Program-made: the position numbers and the translations under genes | The notes under the pieces: model-generated | The model's database searches: none | What the model saw: the letters and a program-made list of their open reading frames with translations, nothing else | Told to the model about the DNA's origin: nothing | Part shown: positions 23,774 to 62,230 of the stretch, piece by piece | Layout of the letters: every line of letters starts with the position of its first letter | Position numbering within the stretch: position 1 is the first letter of the stretch | From: Patescibacteria group bacterium | GTDB taxonomy: Bacteria; Patescibacteriota; Patescibacteriia; PEXW01 | DNA length: 64,000 bases | Direction of reading: 5' to 3' | Assembly (NCBI GenBank): GCA_041671325.1 | Contig: JBAZBR010000003.1 | Location: forward strand, 68,506 to 132,505

Positions 23774-24715
23774 ATGGCTAATTCCCTTGCTAAACTCTTA
23801 AACGACTTTTTGACTTATTTGGAGATTGAAAAAAATGTCTCGCCTTTGACTGTGAAGAATTACGATTTTTACTTGAGGCGCTTCATGAGCTGGGGCAACC
23901 TAAAAGATCCTCAAGACATCACCTCAGAAAAGGTCAGGCAATACCGTTTGTATTTAAATCGTCTACTCAATCAGCAAAAAGAAGCCTTAAAAGCTTCCAC
24001 TCGGAATTACCACTTGATTGCTCTGCGTTCTTTTTTGAAGTATTTATCCAAACGGGATGTTAAAGCTTTGGCTCCGGAAAAGGTGGAACTAGCTAAGCAG
24101 CCTGAACGGCAGGTAAATTTTTTAGAAGGAGCAGATTTGGAAAGATTTTTAGAAGCGCCTTTAAAAACCAATGAACATAATTTGGTTAAGTTCCGGGACA
24201 AGGCAATTTTGGAAATGCTTTTTTCCACGGGCTTGCGGGTTTCCGAATTGGCGGGTTTAAAAAAAGAAAACGTGAATTTGGAAAAAGAGGAATTCACGGT
24301 CCGAGGCAAGGGTGGAAAATTGCGGGTAGTTTTTCTTTCCCATACGTCCAGGCATTTTTTGGGCGAATATTTGAATAATCGGAATGACCAAGAGCCCTGG
24401 ATGTTTTTGCGGCATGACCGGGCCATTAAAAGATCGGCCGAACATTTAAAACCTTTGACTCCCAGGTCAATCCAAAGGATTGTCCAATATTATGCCAAAG
24501 CCGCGGGCATAACCAAAAGGGTCACCCCGCATACCTTGCGCCATTCTTATGCCACGGATTTATTAATCAATGGCGCAGACATCCGTTCAGTCCAATCCAT
24601 GTTGGGCCACGCTTCCATAACAACCACGCAAATTTACACGCACGTCACCAATCAGCAGCTAAGGGAAGTTTATAAGGCTTTCCATGCCAGAAGAAGAAAA
24701 GACAAAGAGGATTGA
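23774..24715 (+). CDS. tyrosine site-specific recombinase (XerC/XerD-like, or island integrase)
   Basis: The C-terminal catalytic box HTLRHSYATDLL...LGHASITTTQIYTHV contains the R..H..R..Y residues. The gene ends at TGA and lies directly upstream of a tRNA cluster. Confidence 0.8.
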   Translation: MANSLAKLLNDFLTYLEIEKNVSPLTVKNYDFYLRRFMSWGNLKDPQDITSEKVRQYRLYLNRLLNQQKEALKASTRNYHLIALRSFLKYLSKRDVKALAPEKVELAKQPERQVNFLEGADLERFLEAPLKTNEHNLVKFRDKAILEMLFSTGLRVSELAGLKKENVNLEKEEFTVRGKGGKLRVVFLSHTSRHFLGEYLNNRNDQEPWMFLRHDRAIKRSAEHLKPLTPRSIQRIVQYYAKAAGITKRVTPHTLRHSYATDLLINGADIRSVQSMLGHASITTTQIYTHVTNQQLREVYKAFHARRRKDKED

Positions 24716-24761
24716 CCTAGGTTCAAGAATTAATTACTATTCGAATTCAGATTGAAAATTT

Positions 24762-24836
24762 GTCCCTATAGTTCAACGGATAGAACGAGAGCCTTCTAAG
24801 CTCTAGATGGAAGTTCGATTCTTCCTGGGGACACCA
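24762..24836 (+). tRNA. tRNA-Arg(TCT)
   Basis: Hand fold. Acceptor GTCCCTA/TGGGGAC, anticodon loop CTTCTAA, T-loop TTCGATT, 3' CCA encoded. 75 nt. Confidence 0.75.
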
Positions 24837-24965
24837 AGAGAATTATTAACAATTTTCCCCTTACAGGTTCTCCGCCACCGAAAGATTTTAGAGGCGGATC
24901 CGCCTCTTGCACCAAAGGCGCATCTGCCTCTGGCACGAGGCGGAGATTCCTGCTGAGGGCACCAG
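24837..24965 (+). repeat. palindrome-rich spacer ending in a tRNA-3'-end-like GGGCACCA
   Basis: Contains the perfect 16-bp palindrome GAGGCGGATCCGCCTC, and CTCCGCC...GGCGGAG long-range pairing. It ends in ...GCTGAGGGCACCA directly before tRNA-Val. Confidence 0.3.
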
Positions 24966-25042
<77 letters not shown>

Positions 25043-25230
25043 CGCGCGCACGCGCCTTTCACCTTTCGTGAACGCGCAAGCTTGTTCACTACAGGTTCCA
25101 GGCGCAGCTCGCTTGCCCCGTTTTATCTATAGATAAAACGGGGACCCCGGTTGGATTCTGCAAGCGTACCGCTTACCCCATCCGCCTTTGGCGAGATGGG
25201 GACCCCAAATGAATAAAAATGTTATCATAA
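25043..25230 (+). repeat. tRNA-trailer structured element (Val copy; divergent member of the trailer family)
   Basis: Starts immediately after CCA with CGCGCGCACGCGCCTTTCACC. It contains perfect hairpins CCCCGTTTTATCTATAGATAAAACGGGG and CCCCATC..GATGGGG, each followed by GGGGACCCC, and CGTACCGCTTACCCC resembling the GTGCCGCTnTCCCC punctuation of the other copies. Confidence 0.4.
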
Positions 25231-25234
25231 ATTT

Positions 25235-25507
25235 ATGAAATATTTCGTCGGCATCATTTTAATAGGCATAGGCTTTGTAATCATCTGGAAGTCAGATTGG
25301 CTTATGAACAATCTGGGCCGGATTGATTGGGCCGAACAGCATTTGGGTATGGATGGCGGGACGCGCTTGTTGTATAAGTTAATTGGTGTAGTTTTGATAA
25401 TCGGAGCTTTTCTTTTAATGGGCGGTGGCTTGTCTAAAGGTGCGAAGAAAGTTTTCACTCCCAGTGGTCCTACTGATATAGAACAGCCGCAAAGTGAAGG
25501 ATTATAG
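25235..25507 (+). CDS. small membrane protein (hypothetical)
   Basis: 90 aa with 2 TM helices. No clear ribosome-binding site. Confidence 0.3.
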   Translation: MKYFVGIILIGIGFVIIWKSDWLMNNLGRIDWAEQHLGMDGGTRLLYKLIGVVLIIGAFLLMGGGLSKGAKKVFTPSGPTDIEQPQSEGL

Positions 25508-25528
25508 AAATTGAAAAATAATTTTTAT

Positions 25529-25604
25529 GGGCCGTTAGCTTAGCTGGTAGAGCGCCGCGTTTGCAACGCGGAGGTCGCCGGTTCGAATCCGGCACGGTCC
25601 ACCA
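25529..25604 (+). tRNA. tRNA-Ala(TGC)
   Basis: Hand fold. Acceptor GGGCCGT/ACGGTCC with the G3:U70 alanine identity pair. Anticodon loop TTTGCAA, CCA encoded. Confidence 0.8.
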
Positions 25605-25850
25605 CGCGTCATTGCGAGCGACGGGTTTCGTGTGGCAACATTTGTTGCCCCACTGCACCCTCTGCTCGCATGCCGCTTTCCCCACGCGCCAGTTCCGCCG
25701 CGTGGGGCCCCCAGGAAGATTTTCGTTCGTGTGCCGCTTTTCCTCACGAATGCGTGCTCCTCCCCCTCGACTCCGCTCGGGGTCGTGCGATCCACATTCG
25801 TGAGGTCAGGTTTCACAAACGTGCCGTTTTCCCAAAAAATATATGCAAAT
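25605..25850 (+). repeat. tRNA-trailer structured element, copy U1
   Basis: CGCGTCATTGCGAGCGACGGGTTTCGTGTG, then hairpin GGCAACATTTGTTGCC, then CCACTGCACCCTCTG-CTCGCATGCCGCTTTCCCC. Further modules end in GTGTGCCGCTTTTCC and GTGCCGTTTTCCC. About 60% GC against a background near 40%. Confidence 0.55.
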
Positions 25851-25962
25851 ATCCAATCACAAAGCTATTGTGTTTTTTTGAAAATGTATTAGCATTAAAG
25901 ACATAAAAAAATAGTTAACCCTTTTCTCTTTTCAAAAAATCAAAAGGAAGGAGGGCCGAGCT

Positions 25963-26346
25963 TTGAAAATCAAACAGCTAGGCAGACATTTGCTTATTGA
26001 ATTCATTGGTTGTGACCCGAAGTTGCTTAACAATCTTCGGGCAATTAAGCGGATGTGTCGGCAAGCGGTTCTGGAATCTGGAGCCACAATTGTCGGGGAT
26101 CGTTTTCATAAGTTTGCTCCCCACGGCGTTTCGGGTGTTTTTTTACTCGCAGAATCACACTTCTCATTCCATAGCTGGCCTGAGTACGGCTACGCGGCTG
26201 TGGACGTTTTCACCTGCGGTGAAAAGGTTGATCCCGAAAAAACGCGTATTTACTTGAAACGCGAACTCAAGGCTAGAAGGGCTTTTATAAGAAGGGTCAA
26301 AAGAGGCATACCTTCCGAAAAAAATGGGGTAATACCTCACAAATAG
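25963..26346 (+). CDS. speH: S-adenosylmethionine decarboxylase proenzyme (class 1B, pyruvoyl-dependent)
   Basis: GRHLLIEFIGCD...AESHFSFHSWPEYGYAAVDVFTCG, with the E|S self-cleavage site. 127 aa. GC content is higher than in the surrounding genes. Confidence 0.85.
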   Translation: MKIKQLGRHLLIEFIGCDPKLLNNLRAIKRMCRQAVLESGATIVGDRFHKFAPHGVSGVFLLAESHFSFHSWPEYGYAAVDVFTCGEKVDPEKTRIYLKRELKARRAFIRRVKRGIPSEKNGVIPHK

Positions 26347-26519
26347 CTGGCTATTTCCAAAGGCCTGGACGAATTTTCGTTCAGGCCTTTATTTATAAAT
26401 TTAACTTTTATTATTGACCAATTCCTGGTAATTTATTAGTATTCGAAAGCTTTAGTGATATGTTTGAATATCTAATGCGTGATGGGTGTCAATAGAGAAT
26501 AAAATAATTGATATTCCCT

Positions 26520-26546
26520 GCGGTGGCCATGGTGTAGTGGTAACAC
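26520..26546 (+). pseudogene. tRNA-His 5' fragment (positions -1 to about 25)
   Basis: GCGGTGGCCATGGTGTAGTGGTAACAC matches the first 26 nt of the intact tRNA-His 150 nt downstream, then diverges. Confidence 0.6.
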
Positions 26547-26673
26547 CCCGCACTACTCACTTCGTTCGAGTGCGAGGGCAGGCAGAGGCAAGTCTGTATC
26601 TCTTGTAAAAAACCACAAAGGTAAGTTTAATTTTCAATTATCATTTATAATATTGAGTAATGCTGTGCATGGG

Positions 26674-26748
26674 GGTGGCCATGGTGTAGTGGTAACACAG
26701 AGGCTTGTGGAGCCTTTATCTCGGGTTCGATCCCCGATGGCCACCCCC
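26674..26748 (+). tRNA. tRNA-His(GTG) with genomically encoded G-1
   Basis: Hand fold. G-1 opposite discriminator C73, acceptor GTGGCCA/TGGCCAC, anticodon loop TTGTGGA, T-loop TTCGATC, CCA encoded. Confidence 0.75.
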
Positions 26749-27135
26749 ATGCACAGCAACCAAAACATATGGTTCGGGTTGGGAATAACAGCAGATCCTC
26801 GAGAACAAAATAAAAGTAAAAAACGAGACCCCGCCCAAGTGGCGGGGCCGATGGCCACCCCAAGGTGGTTGCCACCGCAGGGAATATCAGAGGCTTGCCT
26901 GTCCCGTACTTGAGCCTCGCGAATAGTACGGGATGGAGCCCCCGAACCACCTTGGGTTCGGGGCATGCTTTATCTCGGGTTCTCCGCCACAAAAAAAATA
27001 ATGCGGATCCCCCGCCTACCGAAGCCTCGTGCGGCGGGCAGGCGCCGGATGGCGGGAGATCCCCCAGCCTCACCCGACGAGCGTGCGAGTCAAGGCGGGC
27101 GATGGCCACCCCAAGGTGGTATTCTATGATATAGA
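26749..27135 (+). repeat. GC-rich mosaic of tRNA-His fragments
   Basis: The 3'-end copy CCGATGGCCACCCCAAGGTGG occurs at about 26848 and about 27099. An internal copy at 26888..26982, CAGAGGCTTG-[70-nt insert]-CTTTATCTCGGGTTC, reproduces the anticodon-to-T-arm region with an insertion. About 60% GC. The track ORFs here are judged spurious. Confidence 0.5.
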
Positions 27136-27576
27136 CAAATTATCAAATTAAATGTGCAATTATGAACAATATATTTGTTTGGATTATATTATGTGCGGTA
27201 AGTCTAATATTAGGAATATTAAGTTATGTTGCCGCATATAGAAGGGGAGTTGGAGACATAAAGAATCACCCCAAGATTTTCAGGTTTTTTGAAATATATC
27301 GCCATTTTGTCGGTTACTTTTTTTCAGCAGTTATTGGTTATTATTTTATTAAAGTAAGATGGCCCTACATACATCAAACGGCAGTACTTTCTCTCGGCGA
27401 TTTTATTTTAGGAATTGCATTCCTTTTTGGCGTTTTAGGCTGGTGGCCGTATTTAATCAAAAATATTACTGAGGGAGTGGAAGCTATTATTAATAAACGG
27501 TTAGGAAAATAATTGATTTATTACCTGAATAATAATTTTAAAATTATGTGCGAGTCAAGGCGGGCGATGGCCACCC
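27083..27576 (+). mobile_element. small cassette bounded by a perfect 30-bp direct repeat derived from the tRNA-His 3' end
   Basis: GTGCGAGTCAAGGCGGGCGATGGCCACCCC occurs at 27083..27112 and 27547..27576 and flanks ORF 27162..27512. Confidence 0.5.
27162..27512 (+). CDS. small membrane protein (cassette cargo)
   Basis: 116 aa with 3 TM helices, very AT-rich, flanked by the 30-bp direct repeats. Confidence 0.4.
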   Translation: MNNIFVWIILCAVSLILGILSYVAAYRRGVGDIKNHPKIFRFFEIYRHFVGYFFSAVIGYYFIKVRWPYIHQTAVLSLGDFILGIAFLFGVLGWWPYLIKNITEGVEAIINKRLGK

Positions 27577-27678
27577 CCGCTTACCTCTTAACTGGTACTA
27601 AACCAGCTTTTTCCCATTTTTATTAAAAAGAAAATCCCGCTAATCTGGAAGATTAACGGGATTGAACCTGCAATATTG

Positions 27679-28191
27679 CTAATGTCGATAGCCCGGCTTA
27701 TCCCGGCCACCGAAATAGACGCCGAGCAGGATTTTGAAGTCCGGCATATCACCAATGCCGTACCGAGCTTCAAGGCTATACCGGTGAGAATCCCCGAGCG
27801 GCAGGGTAATGCCACCGAGGACCGAAATGCCGATTTCCGTATCGCTGTTGCCTGATTTGTACTTGAACAAGGCCAACGATGGCCCCAATCCAATATATAA
27901 ATCCGAGTTGCTTCTGGGTAGGGCAAGGGAAACTCTAAAGTCAGCGTTGACCAAGACCGAGGTCAAACCATCTCCAAACCCGACATCGGCGCTGGGCGTG
28001 AAGCGGACAAATTTCCAGTATCCAAGCATACTCTGCAAACCAATGGTGAATTGGTTAGGGTTGGAACTGTAGCCTGCTCGGGCGCCAAAACTCCAACCCG
28101 GATCTTGATCCGCGGCGAAAATACTGGAAAAACCGAATGAAAACAGCGTCAGGAATAACGCCATGCTTAAACACGTTACTCTACGCATCAA
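27679..28191 (-). CDS. secreted beta-strand-rich protein, outer-membrane beta-barrel-like
   Basis: Signal peptide ending ..SSIFAA|DQD, then alternating hydrophobic and Gly-rich beta-hairpin pattern, as in the OmpW/PF13505 family. GC about 50%. There is no C-terminal aromatic residue, so the OMP assignment is tentative. Confidence 0.3.
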   Translation of the reverse strand: MMRRVTCLSMALFLTLFSFGFSSIFAADQDPGWSFGARAGYSSNPNQFTIGLQSMLGYWKFVRFTPSADVGFGDGLTSVLVNADFRVSLALPRSNSDLYIGLGPSLALFKYKSGNSDTEIGISVLGGITLPLGDSHRYSLEARYGIGDMPDFKILLGVYFGGRDKPGYRH

Positions 28192-29010: not shown

Positions 29011-30612
29011 ATGGCAGAAATTTCAGATTTCCCAAAAAGCATGCAAAAAGTCATTAAGGCTTTTGAAGAGCCTGTGCCGAATTTGGAAGCCCCGCCAGGC
29101 GTGCCCAGAATCAAATTAAACGAGGTCATTGGCCGCGTGGCTTGGGTTTATGAAAAATTAAGAAACTCAATTGAATTCCAGGAAGAGCATTTGTTGCGGC
29201 GGAACAGCATTGAGCGGATTTTGCGCCGGAAAATTTTGTTGGAAAACCGGAACATCATTGATGCCAGGTTATTGATCTATGAATTAATCCGCGCCCGGTA
29301 TTTACCCAATAACGCCTTGCCCGAAGTTATCATCGGCATTGTCCAAAACTATATCGACCGGTACTTGGCGCTTTTGGACCATTTAAAATTGCGGCGCACA
29401 GACCCGGATGACCGGAAATTAATCCATTGGGTGATCAGCGTGGCTTCGGCGGATATTGAAGAACGGCTAAATCCCAGCATCCGGGAAGACGCCTTGGTGG
29501 AATTAATGTATGCCACCATCAGGAATAACTTGATTTTGCCGGAAAACGTGCCAGCCGGCCAAGAACAGGATATCTTGGTTTATTTGGCCATCCATCGGGC
29601 TTTGATAAAATCCGATGACGCAATTTTACGCTACCACCTTTTCCGGTGGGCTTACCCAAATTGGCAAAACCCAGACCATGCCGTGACTGAGCAGGTCAGG
29701 CAAAATTTTGGAAATTTTGTCGAAACCATAGAAAAAAGGATCCATCATCCGCTTTCCGAAAGGCTGATGGTCATTTGCCGGCAATACACCATTCCGTTTT
29801 TGGTTTTAGCTGATGTCTTTAAGGATAAACCTCAAGAAGTCAGGCTTTTATTGACCAGTCCGCAGACTTTGGCCGAGGCTACTGAAAAAGCCATGAAAAA
29901 TCGGATAAAATTTGCCGGTTCCAGGCTCAGGCGGACAACCATCCGAAGCATTATTTATAGTTTCACCACTAAATTGCTTTTAGCCCTGGTCCTGGAACTG
30001 CCTTATGAAGTTTACGTCTTAAAGCTCAGTAATTTTGTCCCGCTTTACGTTAACGGTCTTTTCCATCCCCTGTTAATGTCATTCATTGGTTTGACCGCCA
30101 GGGTGCCTGGCAAAAAAAATACGGAGTTAGTTATCCAAGCAGTCCAAGAAATAATCAATCCTTCTCGGCCCAGGGTAATTTTCGCAAAAAAAATCAAGCC
30201 CCGGCCAAGGAGAAAATTAAGGACTTTTGCTTTTAACCTGGCTTACCTAGCAACCTTTGTGTTAATTTTCGGCGGTTTGGCCTTGCTCTTACATAAATTT
30301 TATTTCAATTGGGTAAGCATCATCATTTTCCTTTTCTTCTTATCGGTCATCAGCTTGTTTGGCATGCGCATCCGGCAGGTAGTCAAGGAATTGACGATTT
30401 TGGACAAGAGGGAAAATTTATTCCTTTTGCTTTTAAGCTTTATTTCCCTGCCGATCTTGAAGGTTGGCCAATGGTTTTCCAAAAAAATCCCAAAATTCAA
30501 CTTATTCATTTTTATTCTTGATTTTATTATTGAAGCGCCATTTAAAATCTTCGTCGAAACCGTGGATGAATGGCTGAATTTCTTAAAGGAAAAACGGGAA
30601 GAGATATCTTAA
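29011..30612 (+). CDS. hypothetical membrane protein with an N-terminal soluble domain and C-terminal TM helices
   Basis: 533-aa ORF with normal codon usage. The C-terminal 150 aa contain 4 TM helices. Confidence 0.45.
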   Translation: MAEISDFPKSMQKVIKAFEEPVPNLEAPPGVPRIKLNEVIGRVAWVYEKLRNSIEFQEEHLLRRNSIERILRRKILLENRNIIDARLLIYELIRARYLPNNALPEVIIGIVQNYIDRYLALLDHLKLRRTDPDDRKLIHWVISVASADIEERLNPSIREDALVELMYATIRNNLILPENVPAGQEQDILVYLAIHRALIKSDDAILRYHLFRWAYPNWQNPDHAVTEQVRQNFGNFVETIEKRIHHPLSERLMVICRQYTIPFLVLADVFKDKPQEVRLLLTSPQTLAEATEKAMKNRIKFAGSRLRRTTIRSIIYSFTTKLLLALVLELPYEVYVLKLSNFVPLYVNGLFHPLLMSFIGLTARVPGKKNTELVIQAVQEIINPSRPRVIFAKKIKPRPRRKLRTFAFNLAYLATFVLIFGGLALLLHKFYFNWVSIIIFLFFLSVISLFGMRIRQVVKELTILDKRENLFLLLLSFISLPILKVGQWFSKKIPKFNLFIFILDFIIEAPFKIFVETVDEWLNFLKEKREEIS

Positions 30613-48858: not shown

Positions 48859-49090
48859 CGCGTCATCACGTGCGACGGGTTTCGTGTGGCAACATTTGTT
48901 GCCCCACTGCACCCTTTGCACGCGTGCCGCTCTCCGTGCGAAGCCTCGCTTAACCACAGAAACGCGTACTCCTTCGCTTTACTCAGTCCGTTCCTCGTTT
49001 CTGTGGCGTTTCGAGTTTTTTCCGTGCGTTCCTCATTTATGAGGTAGGTTCCGTTCGCGTGCCGCTCTCCCCAAATTTGTTTTCAACAAA
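48859..49090 (+). repeat. tRNA-trailer structured element, copy U2
   Basis: CGCGTCATCACGTGCGACGGGTTTCGTGTG, then hairpin GGCAACATTTGTTGCC, then CCACTGCACCCTTTGCACGCGTGCCGCTCTCC. A second module ends CGCGTGCCGCTCTCCCC and is followed by the hairpin CCCCAAATTTGTT..AACAAATTTGGG. Confidence 0.55.
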
Positions 49091-49171
49091 TTTGGGACTA
49101 GGTTGTGCCATAAACGGTTACAGACTATTGCTTTTAATTCAGTTTATTTGTAAATTTAAGTCATTCAATTT

Positions 49172-49247
49172 GGGAGCATAGCTTAGCTGGTAGAGCAGAC
49201 GCCTCTTAAGCGTACGGTCGGGGGTTCGAATCCCTCTGCTCCCACCA
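49172..49247 (+). tRNA. tRNA-Lys(CTT)
   Basis: Hand fold. Acceptor GGGAGCA/TGCTCCC, anticodon loop CTCTTAA, T-loop TTCGAAT, CCA encoded. Confidence 0.7.
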
Positions 49248-49606
49248 ACCTACGTTTCGCAGACGGAACTTCGGTTGGCAGGCCAAAAACCTACAATTAT
49301 TAGTTTATTGCTATTTTTATGTGGTTTGTATATGGATTGTCATGCAAAGACGACTATCTTTATATCGGATCAACCAATAGTTTAAAACGTCGTGTGTTTG
49401 AACACGATGCTGGCAAATGTTTAACTTCAAAAAACAGATTGCCCTGTAAATTAAAATTTTATATTGCTGTTAACACAGAAAAAACCGCTAGAAATTTGGA
49501 GAAATATTTAAAAACTGGTTCAGGTAAGGCCATTCTAAAAAAACGAATTTTAACTGACGAAGCTTCGTCGAAAGACGAAGCGTAGTCAGCCCCTCTGCTC
49601 CCACCA
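49248..49606 (+). mobile_element. about 359-bp insertion carrying a GIY-YIG nuclease gene, integrated exactly after the tRNA-Lys CCA with a 16-bp duplication of the tRNA 3' end
   Basis: CCCTCTGCTCCCACCA occurs at 49232..49247 (the tRNA 3' end) and again at 49591..49606. The second copy is immediately followed by the canonical trailer start CGCGTCATCGCGAGCGG. Confidence 0.6.
49319..49585 (+). CDS. GIY-YIG nuclease, YhbQ/UPF0213-like
   Basis: WFVYGLSCKDDYLYIGSTNSLKRRVFEHDAGK(C) matches WF[LV]Y.[LI]...D..LY[TI]G.T..[DS]..RR...H..GKG of E. coli YhbQ-type GIY-YIG proteins. 88 aa. Confidence 0.8.
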   Translation: MWFVYGLSCKDDYLYIGSTNSLKRRVFEHDAGKCLTSKNRLPCKLKFYIAVNTEKTARNLEKYLKTGSGKAILKKRILTDEASSKDEA

Positions 49607-49790
49607 CGCGTCATCGCGAGCGGCGGGTTTCGTGTGCCCCGCCCTGGCGGGACCCACTGCACCCTTTGTTCGCGTGCCGCTATCCCCAATTTTTAATAAA
49701 AAATTGGGGACCCCACGAGACATTAGCTTTCACAGGTGTGCCGCTTTTCCCACGCGCCAGTTCCGTCGCGTGGGGCTCCTGAATATACAA
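49607..49790 (+). repeat. tRNA-trailer structured element, copy U3 (displaced from tRNA-Lys by the GIY-YIG insertion)
   Basis: CGCGTCATCGCGAGCGGCGGGTTTCGTGTG, then a different hairpin CCCCGCCCTGGCGGG at the same position as GGCAACATTTGTTGCC in U1 and U2, then CCACTGCACCCTTTGTTCGCGTGCCGCTATCCCC. Further modules are GTGTGCCGCTTTTCCC and ACGCGCCAGTTCCGTCGCGTGGGGC, which are shared with U1. Confidence 0.55.
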
Positions 49791-61558: not shown

Positions 61559-61566
61559 AAATGTTT

Positions 61567-61671
61567 TGTCATCCTGACGACCTGACCATGGACAGGGAGG
61601 AAGGATCTTTATAAGGATTGAATATTTATGAAGATTCTTCGTCCTCGATCAGGCTCGGACTCAGAATGACA
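61567..61671. repeat. GTCATYCTGA palindromic element (MITE-like), copy
   Basis: TTGTCATCCTGACGACCTGACC...GTCCTCGATCAGGCTCGGACTCAGAATGACAG. It starts 9 nt upstream of the rbfA start codon. Confidence 0.6.
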
Positions 61672-61686
61672 GAAAAAGTTAGTTCT

Positions 61687-62076: not shown

Positions 62077-62084
62077 ATGATTAT

Positions 62085-62224
62085 TGTCATCCTGACGACC
62101 TGCCTATGAGCAGGGAGGAAGGATCTTAATAAGGCTAAAATTTATAAAGATTCTCCCGCCTACCTTCGCCAGACGAAGTTCGGCGGGCAGGTCGTCCTCG
62201 ATCAGACTCGGATTCAGAATGACA
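62085..62224. repeat. GTCATYCTGA palindromic element (MITE-like), longer variant
   Basis: Same termini as the 61567 copy, in the same orientation, with an internal 30-nt insertion. It lies between the infB stop and the start of the 62076 gene. Confidence 0.6.
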
Positions 62225-62230
62225 GGGATG

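Follow-up and report, generated by a model that had tools for sequence, protein, structure and literature searches.

A tRNA-His gene set among partial copies of itself and miniature repeat-bounded units in a Patescibacteria genome: possible relics of small tRNA-targeting elements

Architecture of the tRNA-His locus

We analyzed a 64-kb stretch of DNA from a Patescibacteria group bacterium (64,000 nucleotides of contig JBAZBR010000003.1, assembly GCA_041671325.1; hereafter the window), focusing on its tRNA-His locus, in which an intact gene lies among partial copies of its own 5', internal and 3' parts, GC-rich hairpins and small units bounded by repeats (Table 1). An earlier note, made from the letters alone, had described this locus as a serial integration hotspot. 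The intact tRNA-His(GTG) with an encoded G-1 on which that description was built is recovered at 26674-26749 by both ARAGORN and the Rfam tRNA model (62.3 bits), and it lacks an encoded CCA, reading CCCA instead. A leader of 13 nt precedes it and an equally long trailer follows, the two being exact reverse complements; together with the acceptor stem these make up a perfect 22-bp inverted repeat (26661-26682/26737-26758), that is, a continuous leader, acceptor-stem and trailer helix around the live gene. A second perfect inverted repeat, of 19 bp (26509-26527/26871-26889, 100% complementary), encloses the live gene as a whole, pairing the leader and acceptor strand of an upstream partial copy (psi1) with GCCACC and the trailer sequence just before a downstream partial copy (psi2). 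The fold of 26505-26893, which includes both repeats, has a z-score of -9.2.

Downstream of the live gene lie three units of 114, 251 and 465 bp (units a, b and c), each of which ends in a copy of the tRNA 3' end. The last 13 nt of tRNA-His, CGATGGCCACCCC, are found at four exact sites on the plus strand, one within the gene (26735) and the others at 26849, 27100 and 27565, which bears out the three downstream copies described earlier; by chance 0.1 matches are expected, and none of 100 shuffles reached five. The copies at 26849 and 27100 are followed by the proper CCA that the live gene lacks. The perfect 30-bp direct repeat said to surround a 116-aa open reading frame (ORF) is likewise real (27083-27112 and 27548-27577), with its second copy starting at 27548 rather than at 27547. 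Units b and c share both ends, starting with AAGGTGGT and ending with GTGCGAGTCAAGGCGGGCGATGGCCACCCC, and the AAGGTGGT of the junction at 26862-26889 is the same sequence as that at 27113-27120. The most distal 3'-end copy abuts a native-looking downstream flank with a terminator-like hairpin, a layout expected if this copy is the original end of the gene, and the hairpin at 27592-27606 probably marks the original end of the tRNA-His transcription unit.

The coding content of the units is slight. The ORF of unit c (27162-27512) specifies a membrane-like protein of 116 aa that is an orphan by homologue search and has no match in Pfam or NCBIfam, and units a and b contain no plausible coding ORF, the frames of at least 60 aa on both strands overlapping the tRNA and the GC-rich hairpins. 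Unit a includes a terminator-like hairpin on the minus strand (26827-26849). Rfam searches at gathering thresholds returned only tRNAs and, at relaxed E-values, nothing credible within 24600-27800. A recurrence of the 30-bp repeat with different cargo, proposed in the earlier note as a check, was not seen in JGI metagenomes or viral contigs: a 22-mer from the repeat gave two chance matches in high-GC coding sequence in the former, and a 16-mer gave 25 matches in the latter, none extending past the query.

The locus follows, in order, an Xer recombinase gene (23774-24715), tRNA-Arg(TCT), tRNA-Val, a 90-aa ORF, tRNA-Ala and SpeH; the window also encodes a PNPase. Its base composition is not strongly deviant, 1-kb windows across the area having a GC fraction of 0.45-0.48 versus 0.40-0.45 typically elsewhere. 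One reading of this arrangement is that a tyrosine recombinase, either an integrase or the neighboring Xer enzyme hijacked in the manner of IMEX elements, serially integrated small circles at a 13-30-bp att core, each event regenerating the tRNA-His gene and pushing the old end downstream. The 3'-end direct repeats bounding the three units with a native-looking flank beyond the last, the common ends of units b and c, which recall cassettes of one family, the small palindrome CCACC-CCAA-GGTGG, which is like recombinase core sites, and the presence of a recombinase gene 2 kb upstream are all in keeping with this scenario. We nevertheless consider it unlikely, since no unit contains an integrase, 114-251 bp is very small for circular substrates, the att-like sequence lacks relevant matches in the contigs searched, and psi1, the internal blocks, the hairpin inserts and the inverted repeats are left unexplained. 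The tyrosine recombinase gene reported at 23774 does exist, but a part as island integrase is not supported: it lies outside the units and is of the Xer type (246 bits with XerC; 238.5 bits with XerA_Arch, for which the cut-off is 220), and its 3' end is found near tRNA-Arg(TCT) also in two distant relatives (adjacent in L003, about 1.7 kb away on the opposite strand in L010; L numbers denote the loci fetched for comparison). It looks like a conserved core gene.

Probably dead partial copies and their hairpin inserts

The upstream copy, psi1, corresponds to tRNA-His positions -1 to about 49, and the downstream copy, psi2, to positions 25-76. psi1 opens with an exact match to the 5' end (26522-26546, 25/25 nt); the earlier note had extended this copy to 27 nt from 26520, of which the copy stands and the length does not, only one of the two extra bases matching. 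Past a 36-nt insert, CAGAGGC at 26583 and TATCTC at 26597 probably continue psi1 (26583-26602), after which comes an AT-rich spacer (18% GC). In psi2, a hand parse places exact blocks in the correct order over positions 25-76 with zero substitutions (52/52 nt), and the best automatic collinear chain in this region scores 50, whereas 500 shuffles averaged 15.6 and never exceeded 32. The two pieces of an internal copy recognized previously, CAGAGGCTTG at 26888 and CTTTATCTCGGGTTC at 26968, are both present; the interruption between them is also genuine, although it is not a single 70-nt insert but two hairpin inserts (26898-26933 and 26941-26967) on either side of a retained TGGAGCC. Altogether four insertions part the blocks of psi2: hairpins of 36 nt and 27 nt, a 75-nt insertion in the T loop and a 35-nt spacer. 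As positions 25-31 are present in both psi1 and psi2, these represent two separate dead copies, and the same overlap rules out a single old gene split by a newer one. We infer that neither is functional.

Leader/trailer pairing comparable to that of the live gene (11-12 of 13 positions) is found in the tRNA-His genes of L003, L005, L007, L015, L021 and L027 with differing sequences; at the other 17 tRNA-His loci compared, it is no higher than with shuffled trailers. The pairing is a lineage trait, seen in one subgroup of the tRNA-His genes of Patescibacteria. Because six relatives display it with different sequences, we downgraded the candidate interpretation of the 22-bp inverted repeat as the terminal repeat of a miniature inverted-repeat transposable element. 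Since the pairing is such a trait, we read the outer 19-bp repeat as the shell of an older tRNA-His gene, inside which the live gene is nested. The helix may serve as a processing signal, which in the window takes the place of an encoded CCA. Across the subgroup, comprising the six relatives and the window, 11-13 of 13 leader/trailer pairs extend the acceptor stem to ~22 bp.

Three of the inserts belong to one family of hairpins of 32-37 nt: those at 27011-27042 and 26547-26582 align with a 37-nt hairpin, CCCGCCTACC...GGCGGGCAGG, situated far from the locus at 62155-62191, and that at 26898-26933 aligns with it in inverted orientation. The distant hairpin is a clean, discrete insertion, as expected of a mobile palindrome, being absent from the corresponding empty site in a paralogous repeat (61566-61672); for the hairpins of the tRNA-His locus, we infer the empty sites from the intact tRNA. 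The paralogous repeat is itself an element of ~107 nt with two copies (61566-61672 and 62084-62225, the second holding the 37-nt hairpin) and inverted ends TGTCATCCTGACGA...TCAGAATGACA, both lying in intergenic spacers between minus-strand genes. A second family joins two hairpins, TCCGCC-loop-GGCGGA and then (T/C)CCGCC-loop-GGCGG(G)A. In three dead tRNA copies (L011 816 and, in the window, 24871 and 26983) this double hairpin interrupts the T loop between C56 and G57, and in two others (L015, L062) it lies in the D loop, with covarying stems and conserved loops. The hairpin inserts are small mobile palindromes that prefer tRNA-derived sequence. The D-loop double hairpins measure 30-31 nt and occur in 5' pseudo-copies of tRNA-Arg (L015, reverse complement, about 2485-2545) and tRNA-Ser (L062 878-935); their stems read TCCGCC-CGA-GGCGGA CCCGCC-TT-GGGCGGG versus CCAGCC-CGA-GGCTGG TCGGCC-TT-GGGCCGA, with the same loops (CGA, TT).

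The exact, interrupted blocks of psi2 also bring to mind an RNA-level explanation, in which the fragments would be exons of a split, permuted or multi-intron tRNA-His, with the hairpins removed and the helices guiding processing. The psi2 blocks are in order, unsubstituted and broken by insertions only, as exons should be; the inserts fall in loops and junctions (25/26, 34/35, 41/42, 56/57, 63/64), like the introns of archaea; both helices, the outer of 19 bp and the inner of 22 bp, have very high stability; and the GC-rich modules next to tRNA genes are all on the tRNA strand. Even so, this is very improbable: an intact tRNA-His gene is present, psi2 lacks positions -1 to 24 and overlaps psi1 at 25-31 so that there is no complete exon set, one insert of the family is inverted (26898-26933) and another sits in a repeat that is not a tRNA (62155), neither of which suits an intron, and the fold of psi2 by itself is only a modest improvement on that of shuffled sequence (z = -2.3). 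No 3-4-3 bulge-helix-bulge was evident by eye at the 34/35 boundary, the one boundary inspected. Moreover, the organism is bacterial, as its PNPase attests, and no tRNA splicing endonuclease is known from bacteria.

Table 1. Features of the tRNA-His locus and its flanks (positions in the window)
Feature	Position	Strand	Remarks
Promoter-like site TTGACC-17-TAGTAT	26414-26442	+	Upstream of the dead 5' copy; consensus match only
Outer inverted-repeat arm	26509-26527	+	13-nt leader (26509-26521) and GGTGGC; pairs perfectly with 26871-26889
psi1 block	26522-26546	+	tRNA-His positions -1 to 25, exact copy
Iu, 36-nt GC-rich hairpin insert	26547-26582	+	CCCGY..CTAY...GGG(A)CAGG family; aligns with 27011-27046 and 62155
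psi1 continuation (probable)	26583-26602	+	CAGAGGC (positions 25-31), 7 degenerate nt, TATCTC (44-49); short matches
Live unit	26661-26758	+	13-nt leader, tRNA-His(GTG) 26674-26749, 13-nt trailer
Unit a	26748-26861	+	114 bp; without ORF; ends in 13-nt 3' copy 26849-26861, then CCA
Junction	26862-26889	+	AAGGTGGTT, then GCCACC and reverse complement of outer leader (second arm of 19-bp repeat)
Unit b	26862-27112	+	251 bp, 64% GC; ends in copy 1 of 30-bp repeat
psi2 block CAGAGGCTTG	26888-26897	+	Positions 25-34
I2, 36-nt hairpin insert	26898-26933	-	Iu family, inverted; between tRNA positions 34 and 35
psi2 block TGGAGCC	26934-26940	+	Positions 35-41; 7-mer weak alone, supported by correct order
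I3, 27-nt hairpin insert	26941-26967	+	CCCCGAACC/GGTTCGGGG; contains reverse complement of CCCAAGGTGGTT
psi2 block CTTTATCTCGGGTTC	26968-26982	+	Positions 41-56
T-loop insertion (GGTTC^GA)	26983-27057	+	Double hairpin TCCGCC..GCGGA and TCC(C)GCC..GGCGGGA
Nested 32-nt CCCG..CAGG hairpin	27011-27042	+	Inside the T-loop double-hairpin element
psi2 block GATCCCC	27058-27064	+	Positions 57-63; alternative copy 27006-27012
Spacer, 35 nt ending GACGAGCGTGCGAGTCAAGGCGGG	27065-27099	+	Loosely like right end of GIY-YIG cassettes
30-bp repeat, copy 1	27083-27112	+	Holds psi2 3' end; CCA and AGGTGGT next
psi2 3' end CGATGGCCACCCC	27100-27112	+	Then CCA
Unit c	27113-27577	+	465 bp, 33% GC; ends in copy 2 of 30-bp repeat (27548-27577)
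Terminator-like hairpin and T run	27592-27606	+	Just past last 3' copy; consensus match

Assembly support and comparison with relatives

The locus is reproduced in independent assemblies. ENA assembly ERZ27249449 is 99.985% identical to the window over 20 kb with three mismatches, all near 29960-29974 and outside the locus; these differences, lying within 15 bp of each other, fall inside a 533-aa ORF (29011-30612). The Logan contigs of SRR6484324 and SRR18595301 both begin at 26718 and continue across the locus, that of SRR18595301 being 100% identical and that of SRR6484324 having 3 mismatches in 5.8 kb at unmapped positions. Three assemblies from different runs thus agree over 26718-27577, and L001 does so over the whole locus. 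The earlier note had allowed that the fragments might stem from assembly collapse of two tRNA-His loci, and the short-read contigs do break inside the tRNA, at 26703 and 26718; as the independent assemblies agree, such an artefact is excluded, and the chance expectations for both the 13-mer count and the collinear chain are far exceeded, leaving collapse or chance matching with next to no probability.

The exact 25-nt 5' end of tRNA-His was found in 25 species-level genomes, most of them labelled Patescibacteria or CPR (candidate phyla radiation); eight carry the label uncultured Gammaproteobacteria, a suspected mislabelling. In none of the 25 loci does the 25-mer occur twice, none shares with the window any mosaic segment beyond the tRNA, and three of them (L005, L006, L027) have an identical tRNA-His with none of the fragments. 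The mosaic is therefore probably a lineage-specific gain. As for the neighboring genes, homologues of a 170-aa protein are not syntenic, and SpeH and a 169-aa protein were found only on the same three or four identical contigs.

GIY-YIG cassettes behind other tRNA genes

An arrangement comparable to the units behind tRNA-His is seen elsewhere in the window, where tRNA-Lys(CTT) (49172-49247) is followed by a ~360-bp cassette (region 49172-49690) with a gene for an 88-aa GIY-YIG protein (49319-49585) and, past this gene, a 16-nt copy of the tRNA-Lys 3' end (49592-49607). The protein matches PF01541 with 44 bits over residues 1-69, and the closest solved structures are those of UPF0213 proteins (E 0.0035). 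Its 298 homologues are from Patescibacteria, Bacteroidota and Ignavibacteria, many on very short contigs. Every complete GIY-YIG gene that we examined lies directly behind a tRNA or tRNA fragment, and most have a 13-21-nt copy of the tRNA end within about 10-15 nt downstream. Behind tRNA-His itself, L004 and L013 have a small GIY-YIG ORF that precedes a 12-18-nt repetition of the tRNA 3' end, and L013 has in addition a 2.5-kb unit with another 3'-end copy. A cassette with the same ends stands behind tRNA-Ser in L062, L065, L067, L070 and L089, of which L070 comes from an Ignavibacteriota (Melioribacteraceae) genome, the other carriers being Patescibacteria. In L062 three cassettes stand in series (178, 175 and 394 bp), of which those of 178 and 175 bp are GC-rich and lack an ORF; this locus also has a 21-nt 5' fragment and a GIY-YIG gene upstream of the intact tRNA-Ser, and thus combines 5' and 3' fragments in one place. 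A gene for a 74-aa "23S rRNA intervening sequence protein" (PF05635) is situated directly 3' of the GIY-YIG cassette behind tRNA-Ser in L089 (1853-2077), L092 and L095.

The ends of these cassettes are related to each other: the left end, ACCTACG-hairpin-CTTCGGTTGGCAGGCC, and the right end, CTGACGAAGC-hairpin-GCGTAGTCAG, are inverted copies, and a model of the left ends (R1) matches the right end in reverse orientation with E 0.006. In the window the cassette-end models detect the tRNA-Lys cassette strongly and the 62155 hairpin weakly (17.6 bits, E about 1e-3), the latter being the only match of the left-end model outside a cassette. The candidate interpretation of the GC-rich inserts as solo ends of GIY-YIG cassettes is unsupported by the covariance models, with a weak link through 62155 only. 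Likewise, the 35-nt spacer at 27065-27099 resembles the cassette right end only by a relaxed pattern written after seeing the sequence, and the covariance model of the cassette end does not detect it. In viral contigs the left-end sequence CTTCGGTTGGCAGGCC gave 18 chance matches in coding sequence. The literature searched yielded no account of GIY-YIG cassettes with tRNA 3' ends as their boundaries, and the association of tiny GIY-YIG cassettes, hairpin repeats and tRNA gene ends, which spans phyla, is apparently undescribed.

Mosaic loci at other tRNA genes

Miniature cassettes between repeats are common in Patescibacteria, and partial tRNA copies lie near 9 of the 43 tRNAs in the fetched loci; where the architecture recurs at other tRNAs, its cargo is usually a gene for a GIY-YIG nuclease of ~85 aa. 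The closest parallel to the nested structure at tRNA-His is the tRNA-Val locus of L011 (JBBUDB010000016, oriented 600-880), in which an exact 36-nt 5' copy comes first, then a leader of 13 nt and the intact gene, and after these the leader again as a perfect inverted copy of 18 bp. The insertion-laden 3' remnant beyond carries the perfect palindrome CCTGCCTGCCGGCAGGCAGG and the T-loop double hairpin; this old 3' part differs from the live tRNA-Val. In the window, the live tRNA-Arg(TCT) is followed by a dead 3' remnant of a different tRNA-Arg allele (24866-24964), the T arm of which (CAGGTTC...GATTCCTG) is split by the double-hairpin element. Its acceptor end, CTGAGGGCACCA, differs from that of the live gene and resembles the tRNA-Arg of L009, which suggests that the live tRNA-Arg(TCT) may be a replacement gene.

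In light of these relics, which differ from the genes beside them, live genes can be replacement alleles, and this opens the way to an explanation without any dedicated element. Patescibacteria take up DNA, and incoming fragments with their own tRNA gene would have recombined repeatedly, one end by homology and the other by illegitimate joining, tRNA genes being the only stretches conserved between diverged relatives; the gene would be replaced with partial copies left behind, and the hairpin repeats would be independent passengers. Besides the tRNA-Arg and tRNA-Val remnants, which differ from their live genes, it suits this explanation that each shell has its own leader/trailer helix. The copies of tRNA-His, however, are all identical and none is marked as foreign, and neither the regular 13-21-nt tRNA-end copies a few bases past the GIY-YIG stop codons nor the fixed T-loop position of the double hairpin finds an explanation, and we deem it improbable.

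A model of repeated hits by small tRNA-targeting elements

The anatomy of the locus is a direct observation and a reproducible one; also observed are that its architecture recurs, both at other tRNAs and in other genomes, and that the hairpin insertion is discrete. The layout of units a, b and c is what serial insertion at a tRNA 3' end would leave, and to this extent the notion of a serial integration hotspot is supported by the sequence; however, the 5' fragment, the internal fragments, the hairpins and the nested inverted repeats mean that 3'-end integration alone is insufficient and that other events are required. We favor, with about even confidence, a broader interpretation, namely that the locus comprises one functional tRNA-His amid relics left by repeated hits of small tRNA-targeting elements, so that most of it is dead debris.

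Under this interpretation the relics, psi1, psi2 and two solitary 3' ends, would be earlier states of tRNA-His, produced by repeated insertion or replacement at the gene by small selfish elements common in Patescibacteria, which carry or regenerate the displaced tRNA segment such that a working gene always survives. Two kinds of event may be envisaged. The first would be the arrival of 3'-end cassettes, each closed by a repeat of the final 13-30 nt (units a, b and c), an architecture that matches the ~85-aa GIY-YIG nuclease cassettes behind other tRNAs; the second, the landing of 25-75-nt GC-rich hairpins in tRNA loops and junctions. Such hairpins would be lethal in a live gene, and displaced dead fragments would offer safe landing sites, the only ones in which they can persist. 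Alternatively, breaks made by nucleases of the elements might have been repaired with partial duplication. In this scheme the order of events is hypothetical, and so is the driver, whether a GIY-YIG (Ssn-like) nuclease or break repair.

Several observations weigh against this interpretation. No integrase, nuclease or recombinase gene was detected inside any tRNA-His unit among the ORFs or by Pfam and NCBIfam searches. The cassette-end models R1 and R2 find nothing on the plus strand of 26500-27600, and the link to the GIY-YIG cassettes is therefore architectural and indirect, consisting of a shared architecture, one intermediate sequence (62155) and patterns written post hoc. A strain with an emptier site was not found, only identical contigs being available within the population. 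That psi2 is free of substitutions despite its four insertions is odd for old neutral debris, and calls for insertion at a very high rate, for gene conversion by the live tRNA-His, or for selection. All three leaders are exactly 13 nt long and two are perfectly paired, a constancy which suggests a defined mechanism. Together with the psi1 leader that appears as an inverted copy before psi2, the exactness of psi2 and the 13-nt palindromes are left unexplained by our interpretation; they keep alive some defined chemistry and, at low probability, a role at the RNA level.

If the GIY-YIG cassettes are included, the hypothesis of small tRNA-targeting elements can be taken further. We tentatively posit, as a doubtful extension, that there exist undescribed target-regenerating mini-elements homing to tRNA genes in Patescibacteria and also, to go by the GIY-YIG matches, in Ignavibacteriota and Bacteroidota. 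In its autonomous form such an element would be a cassette of ~350-400 bp, combining the gene for a single-domain, Ssn-like GIY-YIG nuclease with inverted ends that bear hairpins and with its own copy of the tRNA 3' end; GC-rich cassettes without an ORF and the 25-40-nt hairpins in T, D and anticodon loops would be non-autonomous. The tRNA-His locus would then be a fossil stack of such elements, and the perfect 13-nt palindromes a signature of their repair or insertion chemistry.

Relationship to known systems and implications

tRNA genes are classic landing sites of large integrative elements, and islands and prophages are reportedly integrated in tRNA and tmRNA genes, including by tandem accretion at one tRNA. 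The locus shares with such islands the direct 3'-end repeats bounding the inserts (the four exact 13-mers, the 30-bp repeat around unit c), a regenerated gene, old ends displaced downstream and several stacked inserts. It differs in that its units are of 114-465 bp instead of kilobases, in that no integrase gene is present within an insert next to an att site, and in its 5' and internal fragments, hairpin-riddled dead copies and live gene nested in an older shell. Integron arrays are similar in their small head-to-tail units with one ORF or none, a shared end resembling a recombination site and a tyrosine recombinase at the side, but the shared end here is a tRNA 3' end and not attC, and the recombinase falls far short of the IntI type (133 bits versus a cut-off of 265 for TIGR02249; 76.5 versus 435 for NF011946).

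The split, permuted and multi-intron tRNA genes of archaea such as Thermoproteales and Nanoarchaeum resemble psi2 in their exact blocks, short structured inserts at non-canonical positions and long leader/trailer helices. In contrast to these, the locus is bacterial, has an intact copy, lacks a complete, non-overlapping exon set and has inserts of a kind that also occurs inverted and outside tRNAs. REP/BIME elements with their RAYT transposases are small mobile GC-rich palindromes, as are the GC clusters of yeast mitochondria (PMC4478555). The hairpins described here are alike in being GC-rich, 25-40 nt long and set in an AT-rich genome, in showing presence/absence insertions in either orientation and in nesting; they differ in concentrating in tRNA-derived T, D and anticodon loops, with no associated transposase identified.

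For the GIY-YIG cassettes, the closest described system is the Ssn family, whose members are single-domain GIY-YIG single-stranded DNA (ssDNA) nucleases flanked by NTS/SRM hairpin repeats (Nat Commun 2025, PMC11893778). The authors of that study likened the NTS-ssnA-NTS layout to an insertion sequence, and the word tRNA never occurs in its main text (PMC11893778). The likeness is one of layout: the tRNA-associated cassettes have a single-domain GIY-YIG gene of ~85-90 aa between hairpin-bearing inverted modules, with hairpins on both sides of the gene, and related short hairpins are scattered in the genome. At 88 aa, the protein of the tRNA-Lys cassette accords with the ~90-100 aa of a single-domain Ssn protein. 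The tRNA-His locus has no nuclease gene, and the published SRM pattern, HGTCWYN(0-2)YYVSBRHN(0-5)WNVSBRGN(0-2)RNCYNB, has no match in the 64-kb window versus 0.2 expected. Another parallel is provided by SegB of phage T4, a free-standing GIY-YIG homing endonuclease in a tRNA gene cluster. SegB drives segmental amplification (PMC13096335); here too a GIY-YIG gene lies among tRNA genes, and the breaks made by SegB lead to copying or duplication of the neighboring DNA. The phage protein is larger, with a DNA-binding domain, and is not known to leave regular tRNA-end duplications or hairpin termini.

The landing-site logic of large elements is thus met here on a miniature scale, without an integrase and in otherwise streamlined genomes, which points to small, poorly described selfish DNA targeting tRNA genes. 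Should the GIY-YIG link be true, the newly described Ssn-type ssDNA nucleases would gain a place among mobile elements, with tRNA gene 3' ends as their concrete target; the link would also explain the very short contigs carrying GIY-YIG genes, since repeated mobile elements break assemblies, and the GC-rich "junk" at CPR tRNA loci. Such loci can serve to test a long-standing idea, namely that parasites aimed at tRNA genes are absorbed by broken or decoy copies. In practical terms, such mosaics can mislead tRNA annotation and the prediction of att sites in metagenome-assembled genomes.

Other GC-rich elements next to tRNA genes

Two additional types of GC-rich element were noticed beside tRNA genes in the window. 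The first is a ~80-nt element starting with CGCGTCAT (25605-25685, 48859-48935, 49608-49690), whose copies are 91-92% alike and begin directly 3' of a CCA: one behind tRNA-Ala, one behind tRNA-Arg(TCG) and one behind the duplicated end of tRNA-Lys. No Rfam family matches this element, and none of the other fetched loci contains it; it forms a long hairpin, the outer helix of which covaries (TGCGAGC/GCTCGCA, CACGTGC/GCACGCG, CGCGAGC/GTTCGCG). The second comprises modules of the form (G)TGCCGCTnTCCCC - hairpin - GGGG(A/C)CCCC (25113-25205, 25669-25830, 48923-49100, 49673-49780), which occur on the plus strand only and next to tRNA genes only, and a similar module lies 3' of tRNA-His in L006.

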